Source: a virus
Taxonomy: Duplodnaviria > Caudoviricetes
IMG/VR virus record: IMGVR_UViG_3300025016_000004
Strand: one strand, 5' to 3'
Length of the DNA stretch: 64,000 bases
Of the stretch, positions 6,007-30,750 are shown one piece after another (positions within the stretch are counted from its first letter, which is position 1; every line of letters begins with the position of its first letter). The notes under the pieces were generated by a model, which ran no database searches, was not told where the DNA came from, and worked only from the letters and a program-made list of their open reading frames with translations. The position numbers and the translations under genes are program-made.

Positions 6007-7812
6007 TTATTTATCAGTGTCTGGTTTTTTATAATTCCTAACCATTTTAGTTATTAATGGATTTCTAACGATATCATTTTCATCAAATTCAAAGAACCCA
6101 ATTTCATCGATATTTCTATGTCTATTCATGGCATCATATAACCCCGTTTTAGTGGCATCATCATATCTATCAGATTGGTCCATATCTCCAGAAACAATAT
6201 ATTTTGAACCGTACCCGATTCTAGTTAAAAGACTTTTCATTTGAGATGGTGACATATTTTGAGCTTCCTCACCGATTAAGATTGAATTATCTAAGGTTTT
6301 ACCTCTAATAAAACCCAAAGGTTCAACCATTAATTCTTTAGAATCTTCTAATTTCCTTCTAGCATCTTCACCTATAATTTTATCAACAATGTCGATTGAT
6401 GCAGCTAAATATGGCTCTAGTTTTTCTTTTAGATTTCCAGGTAAGAATCCTAAGTTCTCTTCAGCTTCAACGGCTGGTTTAACTATTAAAATTTTATTGA
6501 ATGAATTATCTGGGTCTTGAAGTAGTTCTAAAGCTACTGCGATAGCTACGAAAGAATTATGTGTAACTATGAAGTTATCTGTAATATATAAAGAATCTTT
6601 ACTATCAATTGAGATACATTTAGCTTCTGATTGACCTATAGGTTCTATGTCAGTGATATAACGTTTTGGTATATATTTAGTTTTAGGTTTAACTAATTGT
6701 GCTTTTCTTTTTAATTTAAATGGATTAACCTCTGGTGGTAGTGATATAGTTAAGGTGTATGCTTTTTTACATAAAATTTTTTCACCATTATTATCAATAT
6801 ATGAACCTATTTTATCGTTTAACTTAAAAACACCCCCTAAACTATTAACGATAAAACAAACTCCATCAATTAAATCTTTAGATGTGTTAGTGAAAAATGT
6901 GGAAGTACCATTCTTATTTACATAACCATCGGTATCCATTAACCCTCTTAATACTTCTAATCTAACTTTTTTAGTATTAAAAAGGTATTTATCTGGTATT
7001 TTTTTATTTATTGTTGCAATATTTTTTAAGTTTAATTCATTTAAATTATTTAAAATTTCATTATTATTATTTTCACCAATAATTGAGTATTGATACTTAC
7101 CACTTTTTTTATTTATTGTGTGATAATCATTTAATCTTTCGGAAATAAGTTCTACGATTTCAGTATCTTGAGTTGTAAATGTAATTCTATTTTGCGTTAA
7201 ACCACCATCACCTAATAAACATCCTAGAACATAGGGGTCAATAAATAATTCCTTTTCTTCAAATTCAATTGATTTAACTAATGGGATTGTGTGATTTTTA
7301 TCACCTCTACTGGTATTTAAGGTTTCCATTATTTCACTCAAAGGTTTTACATGACCCTTTCTGGGTGAGTAAAATCTTTTACCACCTTTTTTTACTCTAT
7401 AATTTCTATCGTAATATGTGTCAGTTAACCATAAATGCTCATCACAACAATCTGTATAAGAACTATCATTAAAATATACCCTATAAATTTCTTTAATACC
7501 TTGAGGGTGAATTTGAATAACTTTTGTTGGTTTACCTTCAGGGGTTAAAACTTCATCACCAACTCGTATCTCACCCATAGTAGTCCAACCGTTAGGTGTA
7601 AGTATTTTAGAATACAATGGTTGTGCTTTCCCTACGCCAGCAGGCCCAGAACAAAGAACAATTTCTTTCTCTTTAATTAAATTTACAAAATCTTTTTGTT
7701 TAGTGTTTTTGCACTTTAATCTTACCTTGAGTGGTAAGATTTTATTTACAGACCTTTCCTTTGTGGTTGGTTGTGTTGGTGTACTTGTTGTACTTCTTTT
7801 ACCTTTTGCCAT
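6007..7812 (-). CDS. phoH: PhoH-family ATPase containing an intein
   Basis: Walker A GPAGVGK|S split by the intein; LGFLPGNLKEK, RGKTLD, EEAQN, GDMDQSD, IVRNPLI are PhoH motifs. Confidence 0.95.
   Translation of the reverse strand: MAKGKRSTTSTPTQPTTKERSVNKILPLKVRLKCKNTKQKDFVNLIKEKEIVLCSGPAGVGKAQPLYSKILTPNGWTTMGEIRVGDEVLTPEGKPTKVIQIHPQGIKEIYRVYFNDSSYTDCCDEHLWLTDTYYDRNYRVKKGGKRFYSPRKGHVKPLSEIMETLNTSRGDKNHTIPLVKSIEFEEKELFIDPYVLGCLLGDGGLTQNRITFTTQDTEIVELISERLNDYHTINKKSGKYQYSIIGENNNNEILNNLNELNLKNIATINKKIPDKYLFNTKKVRLEVLRGLMDTDGYVNKNGTSTFFTNTSKDLIDGVCFIVNSLGGVFKLNDKIGSYIDNNGEKILCKKAYTLTISLPPEVNPFKLKRKAQLVKPKTKYIPKRYITDIEPIGQSEAKCISIDSKDSLYITDNFIVTHNSFVAIAVALELLQDPDNSFNKILIVKPAVEAEENLGFLPGNLKEKLEPYLAASIDIVDKIIGEDARRKLEDSKELMVEPLGFIRGKTLDNSILIGEEAQNMSPSQMKSLLTRIGYGSKYIVSGDMDQSDRYDDATKTGLYDAMNRHRNIDEIGFFEFDENDIVRNPLITKMVRNYKKPDTDK
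6556..7626 (-). mobile_element. Class 3-type intein (357 aa) with LAGLIDADG endonuclease in PhoH P-loop
   Basis: Starts AQPL, block B DEHLW, block F AKCISID, ends VTHN|S; HEN motifs LGCLLGDGG and LRGLMDTDG. Confidence 0.9.
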
Positions 7813-7882: not shown

Positions 7883-8851
7883 CTATATTTTAGCTTCTTT
7901 ATTTTCGTAGCGTTTTTCTAATTCAGCTAACTTGTACTTTTCGAATATGTTATCTCCATTTACTGTAACTTCAGCAATGAATTTAATTACATAGTGTCCG
8001 TTAAATTCAACGATTTTATCGAATTTTTTTACCTCATATTCATATTCTAAACCATCAATTGCACCTATGGTTTTATCAGTAATGAAACCAATCTTAGTAA
8101 TATCAAGTATATTTGAAGCTCTAGGGTTTTTTATAGCTTTTTTAATTTCACCTATTAAAAATTTGGTTTTCTTATCATATTCATCTTGGTAAGAAGATAC
8201 GTAAAATTCCAATAATTTTTCAGTTTCGTTGATATTTCTAACTAACAATTTTTTGGCATAATATTCAATTTCAAATTTCGGTCTAATATCCCTGTCCACA
8301 TATAGAGCCTTTTTTGATTGCATTGTGGACACCATATCATCAAAAGAAATCTCAGCCAACGTATTACCACTCCAAACATCCGCACCAACTAAATCAAACA
8401 TTATTTTACCATCAATAGGTGTATTATCACCTTTTGGGTTAAGTTTTAATTTATCGTTGCTGAAGGCTTCATAAGCTGATTTGGTGATGTCTTCATTCAT
8501 GACAACTAGCTCAACTGGATACGGGTCGAAGTTATCACGGGTTACTTTATCTAATTTATATTTCTCAATATTATAGGTTTCAACTATTGGTAATCCATCA
8601 GCATCATAACCAACTATTTTAGCTGTTTTATTTTTAGATTCACTTAAAACTTTATACAACCGCCATCTCAACTCTTTAACTTGTTGATTCGTTATCTGAT
8701 TTTTTAACCCATGTAATAATGTACCTTGGTCCTTTTCTATTATTAATCCAACACCTGACAAGTCGGAAGTTTTTGATTGAGATAATATCTTTTTATCAAA
8801 AACTGATAAACCAATCAAAAGCCCCATAATTTTATTTTTTATCCACGTCAT
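7883..8851 (-). CDS. Hypothetical protein whose first ~60 aa are supplied by the upstream HEG cassette
   Basis: ATG at 8851 (MTWIK...) preferred to GTG 8875; overlaps the HEG stop by 20 nt. Confidence 0.8.
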   Translation of the reverse strand: MTWIKNKIMGLLIGLSVFDKKILSQSKTSDLSGVGLIIEKDQGTLLHGLKNQITNQQVKELRWRLYKVLSESKNKTAKIVGYDADGLPIVETYNIEKYKLDKVTRDNFDPYPVELVVMNEDITKSAYEAFSNDKLKLNPKGDNTPIDGKIMFDLVGADVWSGNTLAEISFDDMVSTMQSKKALYVDRDIRPKFEIEYYAKKLLVRNINETEKLLEFYVSSYQDEYDKKTKFLIGEIKKAIKNPRASNILDITKIGFITDKTIGAIDGLEYEYEVKKFDKIVEFNGHYVIKFIAEVTVNGDNIFEKYKLAELEKRYENKEAKI

Positions 8852-9596
8852 ATTTGTATTGCCATTTAAATCCACCCGTTTTATTTCTTTTACCTAAACA
8901 AACCGCACTTATTTTACCTCTAATTATATTTAATTCTTTTTCAGCTTCCCCAGCGTGTGACCATAATTTAATTATTTCACCATCTAACCCAATTTGGTAG
9001 ACGTGTTTTCTTTTATTAGAAACTTCACCCTTTTTACTTTCACTTATTTTAGCCCTAACTACTTCACTAACTATTCTACCTGTTAATTTTTTTGATAGTT
9101 TTATTTTAGTTTCTTCTGATGTAACTCTCCCCATATTAGCTTTACTAATTTTTAATTTAGTTTCTTTGGACAATTTACTACCAGTTCTTAATTTTTTCAT
9201 TCTAATAGAAATCTCTTTTGAATATCTTTTAGCTAAATTCGACATTTTTTTCTTGGTTTCATCACTATGCTTATGCCCTATATTACCATGACCACCCTCA
9301 TTACAATTTAAACCAAACTTAAAACAATCATAATGTTTAATCCAATACTTTTCACGATTATTTAAATATTCTTTATTTACCCCACATAAACATTCTTCGA
9401 TTATTTCATAAGTATCAACAGGGTTCCATTTATGTTTTTCGCAACTAGCCCATAATTTTATTTGCGATTTAAAACCCCCCTTTTTATAATTATATTTTCT
9501 TTTTTTATTATTTATTGTTTGACCTATATAAATTTTACCGTTTGGGCTAGTTAATTTATAAATATAACCCTTTACATTTCTTAAATCTTTTTTCAT
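8832..9596 (-). mobile_element. Free-standing GIY-YIG homing endonuclease with NUMOD3/NUMOD1-type DNA-binding repeats
   Basis: GYIYKLTSPNGKIYIGQT, HSDETKKKMS repeats, C-terminal IIKLWSHAGEAEKELNI...KTGGFKW. Confidence 0.9.
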
Positions 9597-9642
9597 AAAC
9601 ACTATTTATTAATAAATATATAATTTTTAATAAAAGTGAAAA

Positions 9643-9828
9643 TTATTCTTTAACAGGCATCGTTATCTCACCTCGTAATAGAGCATCAGCTAACATGCCT
9701 TGTTGATATGTTTGTTCCATGGAACCAATATCACCCAAAGCGTCAGACTTTTGAGTTAGCATGCTCTTTTCAACCCTAGATAATGATAGGGATAGTAATG
9801 CGAATTTTCGTTTTAAGTAGTTAAGTAT
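9643..9828 (-). pseudogene. Stranded original 5' end of the 7883..8851 gene (61 codons, ATA at the presumed start)
   Basis: ILNYLKRKFALL...QQGMLADALLRGEITMPVKE* aligns ungapped with MTWIKNK...DQGTLL...QQVKE. Confidence 0.8.
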
Positions 9829-26807: not shown

Positions 26808-29188
26808 CTACTTTTCAGTGCCAAAAACAAGTTTTTTGTAATATTTAGCACGATTTTCTGTAACTTTATCCATTGAGTAGGTTTCAGCCACAGTATTATA
26901 TAAATTATCCCCAAGTATTTTTATCATCTCAGGGTTTTGTATCAATTTTTTAAGGTATTGATACCATTGTTTATGATTCCTATGAGAATCAACCAATAAA
27001 CCATTTTTAGTTAAATCAATTTCACCACCTTTTTGAAATGCATTTTGAATATCAATTGTATAAGGACCATAATTTTGAGCGATTAACGCCTTTTTATGGA
27101 AACCGCTTTCAATTACCTTTAATTGACTTTTAACTTTATTGAAGGTATGTTCAGTCAACGGTGCTAATGAAATATCAAATAAATTATAATTGGTCGCATA
27201 ATTGGTGATTGGTTTTGTCCAAACTCTTCTGTACGGCTCTTGCATAATGCTAGGGAATTCTTCAGTCACATATCTCAATAAATGCTCTTTATATTCTTTT
27301 GAAATTGTCGTATAATCATTGGTGAATATTTTTTCATATTCACACCAAACTGTTTCGTGTGGTAATATATCTCTTTGAGTTTGTTCACCTGTATCTTTGT
27401 TAATTGAATTAACCTTACCTCTAGTATCAAACCCACATAACACAAATTGTATTTTATCTAATAACCCGTCACCTTTTAATTTAGAAACTAATTGATTTAA
27501 TAATTTTAAATCTGCTAAATGACTATTCCCAATCCAAAATGCTTTACCATTTCGTCTAATATATATTATATGATTTTGAACTTCAACGCAATAAACATTT
27601 CCTTTATAATATTTTTTATATTGGTCATCTGTTTTAATTAAAGGGGTATTTTTATTATGTTTACTAACACTAGGGTGTTTTGTAAAATTAACAACTAATG
27701 AATCAAATTGGTTAGTGATTTTACGGCCTTTAATCATAGACGTTCTTTTACCTCGATTAGTAATGGTGGCTGAAATACCTAATTTTAATGCCATTTCTTG
27801 TAAATCATTGGCTAACGCTGATGAAGAGGTAAAAGCTCTAGTTCTACCATATTTGTTATTTTCAATATGACCATCACCATTAATAAACCATTCTAAAAAT
27901 ATCTTTAATTGCCTAGATGACAAATTTAATATTTCTTTAGGTATAAATTTTTCTGTAGCGGTACCAAAATCAGATAAATAATTCCATAATTGTTTATCAA
28001 AGACTCTCAATTGTTTTTTATCTTTAGTGTATTTTGGGTTAAATCCCATTTTAGTTAACAAATTAAACATATGCTCCAAATAATGATTATCTTTAGATTG
28101 AGCAATACCTACTTGATGTAAACCCTTACTTTTACTAGTCCAACCTTCAGCCATCCAAAAGCCGAAAAACTCTAACCAATCATTCATTTCTATCATAGTA
28201 TCAGTCCCATATTTTTCATATAAATCAACCCCATACTTATTTTTTTTATGTCCTTTTATAAAATTTTCATTATAAGCTTCTTCAAATTCGAACTTTAATT
28301 CAGTATAACTAGCTAAATTAGGTAATATAAAATATTCTACCTCATTACCAATCCAATTAGCATTTTTTCTAACATGAAAATTTTTACCATATATTTTTTC
28401 TGATTGTACTAACCCTAAATTCAATTTTTTATGAGTTAAATTCTTAGCTTCTGATGCGTACATATTATGGTTTGGTGTAACTTCATACTCAATTAACCCA
28501 TTTTTAGCACAATTTAATTCACCATCGAATGGTTCACATATATACCCACTTGGTTTATGATATTCCAAATAATTAGTTTCTGGGTTTAATGTTACTACTT
28601 TTTCAGTCTTATCTAACTCATCAAATCGTTTCCAACCACCATCAGTTAAAATTTCGGTATCTGGAGTCATACAACTCCCACCTAACCAACCAATTCTGAT
28701 TTTATCAGAAGGTTCTGGGTTTGAAGTGTATTGTTTTTCTGTTGGGTCAATAGCATTTGGTAAGACTACAACATTCTTGTTATGTTTTTTAATTTCATTT
28801 GCAAAAATTTCTGTTGTTGTTATAATATTCTCAGCAATTTTTAAATTATTAAGGATTTTTTTATCCAAATCATTATTTTTTATAATATGATATGCTGGGT
28901 GAGTCATATCTGGTAACCAATAATCATCTAAATCCATAACTGTAGGGATTCCTAATGATTTTAATTTTTCTAATAATCCTTCCATTTGGTCATAATTACC
29001 CAAAGCTCTATGATAATGAATTAGGTCGTATTGTTTTAACCAATCGTCATCATGTAATTTTGGCTCATATTCAATATCCACATGAAATTCATCTGGATAT
29101 AATTTTTCTAAATGTAAGTTTGGCTTGGTTGAACGAAAATAGCTCAACTTACCCCAGTACGGTCTGAAGGGACTACAAGTATCTTCAT
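26808..29188 (-). CDS. GT-B (GT4-like) glycosyltransferase with intein; first 14 codons out of frame with the body
   Basis: MKILVVPSDRTGVS* (29188-29144) then SYFRSTKP... in another frame; MDLDDYW, PNAID, GWLGGS|SH, KSQLKVIESG. Confidence 0.8.
27525..28673 (-). mobile_element. Intein (383 aa) with LAGLIDADG endonuclease in glycosyltransferase
   Basis: Starts CMTPDTEILT, VTPNH block B, ends WIGN|S; FFGFWMAEG and FLEWFINGDG. Confidence 0.9.
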
Positions 29189-29207
29189 TTTTTGACCTAC
29201 TGGGGTA
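29150..29207 (-). promoter_or_regulatory. RNA hairpin enclosing the glycosyltransferase start codon
   Basis: TACCCCAGTA-GGTC pairs with GACC-G-TACTGGGGTA (14 bp, 1 bulge); begins at the base after the HEG stop. Confidence 0.7.
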
Positions 29208-29975
29208 TCAATTTTGTTTGTTTTCATAATATTTTATTATTTCGTTTATTAGTTCTGGGTTTCTTTTATAATCACTTTCCCAAATAACTTTACTATTATA
29301 ACCATTTTTTTTCGCTAAGTAAAGCTTTTTATTATCACATAACCAAATTTCTTTGGCTGTTTTACTTTTTTTCTTATGCCAATACTCAGCATTATATTTT
29401 TTTGGGTTACAATGCCAATAATCACCATTATACTCTATTAATAAATTAAATTGTGGGACGTAAATATCAAAAATTTTACTTCCTATTCTATAATTAGGTT
29501 CACAATTAATACCTACTTCACTTAATTTATTTATTATTTCATCTTCAGCTTTAGACCTATTATAACTTTTTAATTCACCATTCATTATCCTTTCTTTCAT
29601 CAACTTACTCATTTTAACCCTAACACCTTCCATTTCACCACTTGCCCATAATTTTTTTTTCATATCACTAAACATTTTTCTATATTTTGGTTTAGACATG
29701 TGATTACTGGTGGAAACCCCTATTTTTGATTTACTTATCTTGTTTTTAGTTTCTTCAGTATGGGTTTTATTATAAAATGGGTTACCAACACCTTTTTGTT
29801 TTTTTAATGAACATTTTTTACATATACCTTTCTTTTTTAAATTTCTAGCTAAATAATATTCTTTTGAGGCTTCAACTAATATTTTATTTTTACATAAATG
29901 GCATTTGTAAAAAGAATACCATTTCTGGTTATCAACATTAAATTTGAAGTGTTTATATTTTTCATTTGATTCCAT
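29208..29975 (-). mobile_element. Free-standing Vsr-like/EDxHD-type homing endonuclease with NUMOD3-like repeats
   Basis: GNPFYNKTHTEETKNKIS, SKAEDEI, FDIYVP...IEYNGDYWH, KVIWESD. Confidence 0.8.
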
Positions 29976-30004
29976 AAATTATTTATTAATAAATATGGAA
30001 AAAT

Positions 30005-30076
30005 TTATAAAAAGTTTAAGTATGATACACCTGTTCTGTCACTTGGGACAACTAAGATTTTTATTTTTTTACTCAT
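30005..30076 (-). pseudogene. Stranded original 5' end of the glycosyltransferase
   Basis: MSKKIKILVVPSDRTGVSYLNFL*; KILVVPSDRTGVSY is identical to the downstream copy. Confidence 0.88.
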
Positions 30077-30095
30077 TCTAAAATTCACTTAAACA

Positions 30096-30124
30096 AGTAT
30101 AAGGAAATAAAAAGAATAAGTAAA
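30096..30124 (-). promoter_or_regulatory. sigma70-like promoter TTTACT-N17-TATACT
   Basis: Exact 17-nt spacing, 19 nt upstream of the stranded ATG, just after a terminator. Confidence 0.6.
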
Positions 30125-30125
30125 T

Positions 30126-30153
30126 AAAAAAACCCACTTAAAGTGGGTTTTTT
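30126..30153. terminator. Intrinsic terminator
   Basis: AAAAAAACCCACTT-A-AAGTGGGTTTTTT. Confidence 0.8.
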
Positions 30154-30156
30154 ATA

Positions 30157-30750
30157 TTATTTAGTTGATTTTGGTGTAACTTTTATCTTACCTTCTTTGA
30201 TAAGAGTGGTAATAGTCCTTTTAATTGTAGTTTCAGTTAAATTTTTGGTAAAGGTAGTAGCCATAAAATCTAATAATTTATCTTGAATCTTTTTATCTAA
30301 CTCAGCTTCAGTCATTGTAATTAACATTTGACCTTTTGAATTTACGATTGTAGTTTCATTAATTTGAGAAACTTGAGTTTGTGTAGGTTGTACATATTGA
30401 GCTTGTGGTGCTATTTGTGGTCTAACTAATTTCTTAACATCATCTAAAGAAAATGTTGGCCCACCACCACTAGCCATTTCAAATTTAGGTATTGGGTTTT
30501 CTACCATAGCTCTTTTTATTGCTTCAGGCATTTTACTTTTTTCTAAATTTTGATATGTATTACTGATTTGTCTAGCTGGGTTTGTATGAGGTGTTGCGCC
30601 ATCTGGCAACGCTTCTAATAAATCAACATTACCCGTTAATGTTTCATTTATTATTGTATGGTCAACTTTAAAGTTCGTATTATTAACTTTATCCATTACA
30701 GCTTTGGCCCCACCAAGCATTGCTTCTAATCTTTCTTTACTTACGTCCAT
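30157..30750 (-). CDS. Hypothetical protein
   Basis: 197-aa ORF with Gln/Pro-rich linker. Confidence 0.75.
   Translation of the reverse strand: MDVSKERLEAMLGGAKAVMDKVNNTNFKVDHTIINETLTGNVDLLEALPDGATPHTNPARQISNTYQNLEKSKMPEAIKRAMVENPIPKFEMASGGGPTFSLDDVKKLVRPQIAPQAQYVQPTQTQVSQINETTIVNSKGQMLITMTEAELDKKIQDKLLDFMATTFTKNLTETTIKRTITTLIKEGKIKVTPKSTK

Follow-up and report, generated by a model that had tools for sequence, protein, structure and literature searches.

The 64,000-nucleotide (nt) stretch of phage DNA considered here, called the window below (IMG/VR record IMGVR_UViG_3300025016_000004; Duplodnaviria, Caudoviricetes; position numbers are those of the whole stretch), encodes the peptide KILVVPSDRTGVSY twice on its minus strand: once in a stub at 30076-30005, and again in a replacement copy at 29185-29139, at the head of a glycosyltransferase gene. 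We think it probable that a mobile cassette has inserted in the 5' end of this gene, bringing a foreign N-terminus whose codons are fitted to an RNA hairpin, and that ribosomes would hop over a stop codon and a short gap to continue. Most likely it is the hairpin that would make them hop the stop and the 5-base offset found here, and so rejoin the gene.

Every feature of the cassette and of the glycosyltransferase gene is on the minus strand, in the following order: terminator of the upstream gene, stub open reading frame (ORF), AT-rich spacer, endonuclease gene, replacement copy, glycosyltransferase body. The stub (30005-30076) is a 24-codon ORF with the start and first 19 codons of the resident gene, MSKKIKILVVPSDRTGVSY, followed by four cassette-derived codons (LNFL) and TAA. 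The left junction of the cassette falls after ...TCA TAC TT, and homologous junctions are found at two other loci, L087 and L090; the closest relatives of the gene's backbone, L001-L003, start with MSKK[IL]K[VI]LVV. The endonuclease gene (29208-29975) is free-standing and encodes 255 amino acids. Cassette ORF1 (29144-29227) has 27 codons, MKTNKIDTPVGQK plus MKILVVPSDRTGVS, and then TGA: the first 13 codons form a leader without counterpart in uninterrupted genes, and the last 13 sense codons are a recoded glycosyltransferase N-terminus. ORF1 does not start at ATG 29188; the start is 13 codons further upstream, at ATG 29227-29225 (MKTNKIDTPVGQK ahead of MKILVV), and, as its counterparts in related cassettes do, ORF1 overlaps the last part of the endonuclease gene. 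From 29185 the replacement copy reads KILVVPSDRTGVS, then TGA (29146-29144), with its tyrosine codon only past the 5-nt offset AGT TG AGC TAT. The putative hop site (29142-29149, +5 shift) consists of AGT (29149-29147), the TGA, and AGC (29144-29142); the codon after this landing AGC is TAT (29141-29139), giving ...GVS-YFRS, and the glycosyltransferase body extends from the landing codon to 26808 (26808-29144). Of 24 sequencing runs containing the sequence, four independent groundwater or aquifer runs were compared, and their contigs reproduced 28900-30300 with no differences, at 17-79x coverage; the 5-nt offset is therefore not an assembly error. No empty-site (cassette-free) allele was seen in the contigs of the four runs, and none of the sequencing runs listed was an RNA run.

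In IMG/VR the glycosyltransferase has homologues at no fewer than 86 loci and the endonuclease at no fewer than 118, and in dozens of the phage contigs there the endonuclease gene is directly upstream of the same glycosyltransferase gene. The loci form two classes: uninterrupted genes with a normal start (MSK[IK]KVLV...), and cassette genes with a leader (TPV[GS][RQ]K or NP[LMV]NGRE[RK]), then the conserved [IV]LV[VL]PSDxxGV[S/G], then a stop; PSDxxGV is the most conserved motif of the family. A degenerate pattern for the ...GV[S/G]-stop ending, run on IMG/VR, gave 45 matches, all of them to this cassette and none a false positive. Thirty-nine distinct cassette alleles, all from uncultured phages, have ...GV[S/G], a stop, a gap of 2-10 nt, and a landing codon, and a homologous leader is present in every one. 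The stop comes straight after the take-off codon in all 39 (TGA in 22, TAA in 17, TAG in none). Hop lengths would be +5 in two alleles, +6 in 23, +7 in three, +8 in five, +9 in one, +10 in one, +11 in three, and +13 in one, and there are 22 distinct combinations of take-off codon, gap, and landing codon. Take-off and landing codons agree in their first two bases in 38 of the 39, AGY going with AGY where the body is of the serine type and GGN with GGN where it is of the glycine type; this duplicated, matched Ser/Gly codon appears to be a take-off and landing signature. The window's AGT-TG-AGC is one of the two +5 alleles, the other being AGC-TG-AGC at L199. All 39 alleles restore the family consensus TGV[SG][YFKH][YF]RS.

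Purifying selection is evident on both sides of the gap: the ratio of nonsynonymous to synonymous polymorphism (pN/pS) is 0.29 upstream, over 34 distinct sequences, and 0.37 downstream. Two proposals of the initial annotation are upheld here. One is protein-level selection on the replacement, to which the upstream value speaks directly; the other is translation of the out-of-frame codons, which is almost certain, mainly from the 39 alleles that restore a conserved protein across a stop-containing gap. Readthrough and −1 or +2 frameshifting were rejected as general explanations, the gaps being of varied frame. Reassignment of TGA or TAA as a sense codon was rejected too, since it cannot rescue the frame-shifted gaps (+5, +7, +8, +10, +11, and +13); for TGA it is also contradicted by the endonuclease ORF, which itself ends in TGA. 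With frame-shifting members in the family, neither readthrough nor codon reassignment can be the common explanation. There are no tRNA genes in the window. A micro-intron was likewise rejected; we know of no mechanism that excises 2-10 nt.

The RNA hairpin predicted for the window (29150-29207, −27.1 kcal/mol) is indicated by its fold, by covariation, and by a covariance model. Throughout the family its 5' arm is the leader and its 3' arm the S-D-x-x-G-V codons. In the window the outer helix joins leader positions 29207-29194 to the D R T G V codons (29164-29150), a second, inner helix falls inside the KILVVPS codons, and the outer helix stops one base short of the take-off codon; in all 39 alleles it ends between −2 and +1 of that codon. 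By codon-anchored minimum free energy (MFE) calculation, 66-nt stretches that end at the take-off codon have energies of −24.7 to −37.6 kcal/mol in 39 of 39 cassette alleles, against a mean of −6.3 and at most −12.3 kcal/mol for the same 66 nt of 38 uninterrupted alleles, none of which has the hairpin; MFE fully separates the two classes. Relative to synonymous recodings, z-scores for the hairpin are −2.3 to −4.3.

Base changes in the two arms are strongly coordinated. The third base of the Thr/Ser codon pairs with the leader as AU (17), UA (8), UG (4), GC (3), or CG (2), that of the Val codon as AU, CG, UA, or GC, and GGG/CCCC in the two arms is exchanged jointly for GGA/CUCC. G-U pairs on the sense strand point to pairing of RNA rather than of DNA. 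In a MAFFT alignment of 15 alleles, with a structure set by hand on one subfamily, the outer helix is 96.7% paired and none of 500 shuffles matches the observed covariation. For all 39 alleles, in a covariance-model alignment, the covariation score is 0.261, versus 0.112 when shuffled (0 of 500 shuffles attain the observed score) and 0.03-0.07 with slid partners. The covariance model, R1, matches the window at 29144-29212 with 71.6 bits, but does not split the classes cleanly: uninterrupted alleles reach 30 bits, owing to coding-sequence homology, and non-seed cassette alleles score 22-52 bits. MAFFT and RNAalifold run on unaligned 90-nt stretches gave a weak consensus (−5 kcal/mol), because leaders of unequal length were misaligned. 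From these comparisons we infer that the hairpin acts as a stimulator of bypass.

The events we propose would be the following. A mobile cassette would have entered a phage glycosyltransferase gene at its 5' end, near codon 19. With it would have come a gene for a Vsr-like homing endonuclease, a 13-codon leader with its own translation start, 13 conserved codons of foreign origin, and a stop with a short gap; the resident N-terminus would remain as a dead stub. The foreign copy would keep the same peptide because the motif is nearly invariant in the family, while its spelling would come from a diverged donor lineage and from the choice of codons able to pair with the leader. A ribosome 27 codons into ORF1 would pause with peptidyl-tRNA-Ser on AGU and UGA in its A site. 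The lower 10-14 bp of the hairpin would then be inside the ribosome, with the partner strand outside, and re-zipping behind the ribosome would pull the mRNA through; the tRNA would re-pair at AGC, 5 nt downstream, and decoding would resume as ...TGVS-YFRS. The gap is only a few bases away from where the nuclease is likely to cut, at the left junction, and probably also spoils the nuclease target, as in the T4 gene 60/MobA system. More tentatively, the hairpin of leader and N-terminus could be a portable “winch”, in which the re-zipping of 10-14 bp drags the mRNA by 5-13 nt, and which would serve these endonucleases in place of an intron or intein within essential reading frames.

Homing of the cassette is indicated indirectly, by its patchy distribution and by mosaic allele pairs. 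In a tree of the first 150 residues past the gap, 35 bypass alleles and 42 uninterrupted ones are interspersed, which requires 16 changes of label, and branches with strong support force 11 or more of these; the window clusters with four uninterrupted alleles (support 100/96). Two pairs of loci are mosaic. The bodies of L097 and L118 are 92-100% identical from ~20 nt past the landing codon, and those of L031 and L041 from ~60 nt past it; upstream, identity is ~60% in both pairs. By these alignments the recombination breakpoint is just 3' of the gap, as expected of homing with short co-conversion. In the window itself the co-conversion tract could not be mapped, the nearest relatives having just 53-82% protein identity across the neighborhood. 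An endonuclease match of at least 100 residues is found upstream in 26 of the 39 cassette alleles and a short aligned fragment only in three (one with 199 nt of flank); in the other ten there is no match in the available flank, which is 627 nt long in one case. Since hairpin and gap are kept in alleles without an endonuclease match, they seem to outlive the nuclease.

The endonuclease has a zinc finger and NUMOD3 region and a C-terminal domain that the initial annotation called Vsr-like, a label that holds at the level of fold. NUMOD3 is matched above the Pfam cut-off (3e-07), and a 15-sequence endonuclease profile matches the zinc-finger/NUMOD3 DNA-binding domain of I-TevI (1i3j, 5.5e-05). 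For the C-terminal part of an AlphaFold2 (AF2) model, with predicted local distance difference test (pLDDT) values above 90, the top Foldseek matches are the I-Bth0305I catalytic domain (3r3p; template-modelling (TM) score by target 0.74, probability 1.00, E 2e-3) and Escherichia coli Vsr (1cw0/1vsr). The model thus predicts a Vsr-like PD-(D/E)xK catalytic fold. Sequence-level matches of the Vsr type are all below cut-off (MTES_1575, 1.4e-4; TIGR00632, 3.7e-5, with the homologue from L097; 3r3p, 0.44), and a phmmer search of the endonuclease against the PDB found no match.

Compared codon by codon, stub and replacement have 14 of 14 residues in common and differ at 11 of 14 codons and 17 of 42 bases, all silently and 11 of them at third positions; the four six-fold codons (L, S, R, S) all change codon family. 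This bears out the count made in the initial annotation, and its interpretation of the upstream copy as the remnant and the downstream copy as a replacement brought by the endonuclease cassette also stands. When 17 substitutions were introduced at random, none of 300,000 trials retained more than 11 of the 14 residues, so protein-level constraint is certain and chance is excluded. The extent of the recoding is nevertheless unexceptional when set against the rest of the family: in unrelated pairs of uninterrupted alleles an average of 57% of same-residue codons differ, with 10% of pairs differing at 10 or more of 13 (10/13 being the window's own value over this stretch), and between cassette and uninterrupted alleles the corresponding figures are 66% and 25%. 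The stub is nearest in sequence to L015 (3 differences in 39 nt) and the replacement to L004 and L084 (6 differences); with different nearest relatives, the two copies have different ancestry, and the replacement is a foreign allele. Its G+C content is 43%, compared with 30% for the window, and it has four codons unusual in this phage (AAG, CTT, CGT, and GGG, each 10-13% of the usage of its codon family). These same codons pair with the leader in the covarying hairpin. If the leader is joined to the codons of the stub instead, the fold reaches only −11.0 kcal/mol, as compared with −27.1 for the native sequence, which suggests that the recoding is largely the spelling that the hairpin needs. 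Foreign ancestry and a covarying hairpin would therefore largely explain the silent recoding, and better than immunity does.

That the recoding was selected mainly for resistance to the cassette's own nuclease, as the initial annotation had it, was not upheld, and we consider it unlikely. The recoded stretch and the gap do lie no more than ~45 nt from the left junction, where the nuclease probably cuts, recoding in the mosaic pairs extends ~15-25 nt past the landing codon, and the hosts of homing endonucleases must have resistant targets. However, at three other loci with a retained stub, fewer codons distinguish stub from replacement (3/11 at L081, 4/12 at L087, and 8/13 at L090), so heavy recoding is neither a requirement nor a property of the cassette; divergence equal to that in the window occurs in 10-25% of unrelated allele pairs; and the odd codons are those required by the hairpin. 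There is also the analogy, if only that, of T4, where the bypass insert protects against MobA and polymorphisms alone failed to block it (Manning & Atkins, bioRxiv 10.1101/2022.08.31.505936). The left junctions of four stubs fall 4-8 nt past the Ser/Gly codon, so that the likely site of cutting and insertion adjoins the gap, and by comparison with MobA the gap would be a better candidate for conferring immunity than the recoding. Immunity may still be one of the benefits that the gap brings, and perhaps the recoding too.

A second alternative, which we rate as improbable, dispenses with the hop: ribosomes would stop at TGA and restart at the overlapping TTG (29147), yielding a 27-residue peptide and a glycosyltransferase without its first strand, the peptide being either dispensable or able to complement in trans. 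The window does have a TTGA stop/start overlap, and L086 and L091 likewise have a TTG in the body frame shortly ahead of the landing codon. Against this, in 36 of the 39 alleles the body frame contains neither ATG nor GTG nor TTG ahead of the landing codon, and the next start in that frame either follows 5-30 codons later or does not exist, which means that restart is no general explanation. The codons just past the landing site are conserved (pN/pS 0.37); the PSDxxGV motif is the most conserved part of the family; and a matched, duplicated Ser/Gly codon flanking the gap would be purposeless.

Equally doubtful is the idea that the recoding is kept to prevent direct repeats of 40-57 nt flanking the endonuclease from recombining and deleting the cassette, so that divergence stabilizes the selfish element. 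Stub and replacement are indeed direct repeats, 876 nt apart, and 17 differences in 42 would suppress homologous recombination; but the stub at L081 differs from its replacement at just 6 of 39 bases, and most cassette alleles have no detectable stub, yet have the same hairpin-fitted codons. Lastly, the out-of-frame junction, the presence of two selfish elements in one gene, and the truncated endonuclease might suggest a gene killed by endonuclease insertion, with stub, replacement, and offset as decaying debris, but this is very improbable given a 779-codon body ORF that is open and has 72-75% (N-extein) and 77-82% (C-extein) identity to L001-L003, an architecture shared by 39 alleles, in which both sides are under purifying selection and the hairpin covaries, and a sequence identical in all four runs compared.

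Several points weigh against a hairpin-driven hop as well. The hop is deduced by comparison of sequences. The alignment that gave the covariation score for all 39 alleles was itself fitted to the covariance model, and the tendency of longer hops to go with helices reaching further into the take-off codon (Spearman 0.59) was computed without correction for relatedness. The window has a body-frame TTG one codon before the landing site (TTG AGC TAT), and for this allele alone restart there is possible, although the TTG, made of the last base of AGT plus TG, looks incidental. The window's endonuclease, by alignment, is without the ~50-amino-acid N-terminal helix-turn-helix of most of its relatives, and may be inactive. 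The endonuclease is also found upstream of uninterrupted genes that have no gap (L110, L111, L117-L119, L123, L130, and L155), with a normal short start and no hairpin, so a gap is not the sole way to coexist with the nuclease. Finally, landing codons are imperfect in two alleles, AGT to GGC at L051 and AGC to AGA at L174. The first (L051:3926-3997, AGT-TAA-GGC) would need a G-U pair at codon position 1, and the second (L174:3922-3990, AGC-TGATA-AGA) a wobble mismatch; these may be decaying alleles, or may reflect some tolerance in landing.

The glycosyltransferase body is probably GT4-like. It matches PHROG 7162 (4e-35), and reaches 18.6 bits with Pfam Glyco_transf_4, below the cut-off of 28.5. 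It contains a LAGLIDADG intein at 28673-27525 (Pfam LAGLIDADG_3, 3.2e-11, 43.8 bits, cut-off 22.5), with the limits GGS/CMTPD ... WIGN/S and junctions S/C and N/S, where the slash marks the junction; this one gene is therefore host to two unrelated selfish elements, the endonuclease cassette and the intein. In a collection of phage genomes from GenBank the cassette was not found, and matches to the glycosyltransferase were distant, with at most 38% identity.

A second cassette of the same general layout is found at 8826-9762, also on the minus strand. Its stub ORF occupies 9762-9643 and its GIY-YIG endonuclease gene 9602-8832, and the gene that ends at 7883 has a new start near 8826. Here the replacement N-terminus and the stub have diverged in protein sequence, and neither a stop nor a gap is present. 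The AT-rich spacer of the glycosyltransferase cassette (29976-30004) contains a box, TATTTATTAATAAATA, that precedes both endonuclease genes (29979-30013 and 9603-9640), and in each of the four runs a near-copy lies on a second contig of this phage; the box may serve the selfish genes as a common promoter. An ORF at 6007-7812 (minus strand) has a P-loop (GPAGVGK) followed by an apparent intein (AQPLYSKILTPNGW ... IVTHN/S), a candidate by appearance.

In the searchable literature, T4 gene 60, with its homologues, is the one system behind natural programmed bypassing in phages. The full texts yielded bypassing only in the gene 60/MobA family, yeast mitochondrial byps, a Streptomyces phage candidate, and synthetic short hops, and no case with a glycosyltransferase or with this nuclease family; according to a 2022 survey, no bypassing of a similar kind had been reported from other phages. 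In gene 60, a 5' stem-loop that forms behind the ribosome has been proposed as the propellant (bioRxiv 10.1101/2022.08.31.505936; 10.1101/2024.12.09.627546). The gene 60/MobA system is the closest analogue of the glycosyltransferase cassette: in both, the codons for take-off and landing match (and are often Gly codons), a stop immediately follows the take-off codon, and the mRNA has a helix on the 5' side of it. Both, too, are carried by a homing endonuclease cassette by which a conserved gene is split or re-headed, with the gap near the nuclease target and a bypass that survives loss of the endonuclease. An analogue is all it is, however; membership in the same family was rejected, since host gene, gap length, and nuclease differ. 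The interrupted gene here encodes a glycosyltransferase rather than the large subunit of topoisomerase II, the nuclease is of the Vsr-like/NUMOD3 type rather than HNH as in MobA, and the two systems are not homologous in sequence. The gap measures 2-10 nt rather than 50, and for that reason is without an internal stem-loop or Shine-Dalgarno-like element. The stimulator would be a single long hairpin ending at take-off, made from an added leader and the gene's first codons, and the ribosome would be just 27-33 codons into the ORF when it takes off.

The glycosyltransferase family would accordingly be an unrelated bypass system, with a different gene, a different nuclease, gaps of 2-10 nt, and dozens of natural variants. 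This number of variants, together with a simple covarying 5' hairpin, makes the idea that mRNA pairing behind the ribosome drives forward sliding directly testable; if the winch proposal is true, the 22 natural gap variants are a ready mutational series for mRNA refolding as the driver of sliding. Genes of this kind will be mistaken in annotation for truncated genes or pseudogenes, and silent recoding beside a selfish nuclease should not automatically be taken for target immunity.

Two other kinds of forward ribosome movement resemble the proposed hop in part. The gene for release factor 2 (RF2), prfB, is expressed by a programmed +1 frameshift. In prfB, as in the cassettes, UGA comes after the codon in the P site, with a G-rich element (GGGG or GGAG) 2-3 nt upstream, and the ribosome moves, or would move, forward; in the cassettes, however, the shift would be +5 to +13, onto a non-overlapping codon, and since the G-run and a C-run of the leader covary, the G-run would pair within the mRNA and not (or not only) with an anti-Shine-Dalgarno partner. 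Short non-programmed hops in E. coli were reportedly described by Weiss et al. in 1987. There, as proposed here, peptidyl-tRNA leaves its codon before a stop or hungry codon and re-pairs a few bases downstream, whatever the frame; those hops were of low efficiency and in synthetic or overexpressed genes, whereas at least 39 natural alleles are involved here, in an apparently needed gene and with a covarying hairpin. Hops of +5 and +6 over a slow codon are documented in E. coli (references 5-8 of bioRxiv 10.1101/2022.08.31.505936).

As a way of living inside a gene, the cassette resembles I-Bth0305I and the “fractured genes” (PDB 3r3p; Dassa et al., 2009, PMC2677866), with which it shares a Vsr-like fold, a free-standing nuclease gene within a conserved phage gene, mobility, and a patchy distribution. 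Fractured genes restore their product by introns or split inteins; this cassette would instead supply a new 5' end and translation across a gap. In nrdA of phage Aeh1, the endonuclease MobE is likewise inside an ORF, and coding sequence supplied by the cassette (added N- and C-terminal tails) keeps the gene working, but there two polypeptides assemble, while here the upstream fragment would be a dead 19-codon stub and a single polypeptide would be restored. Translation across a gap would thus be a third route by which homing endonucleases live inside genes, without introns or inteins.

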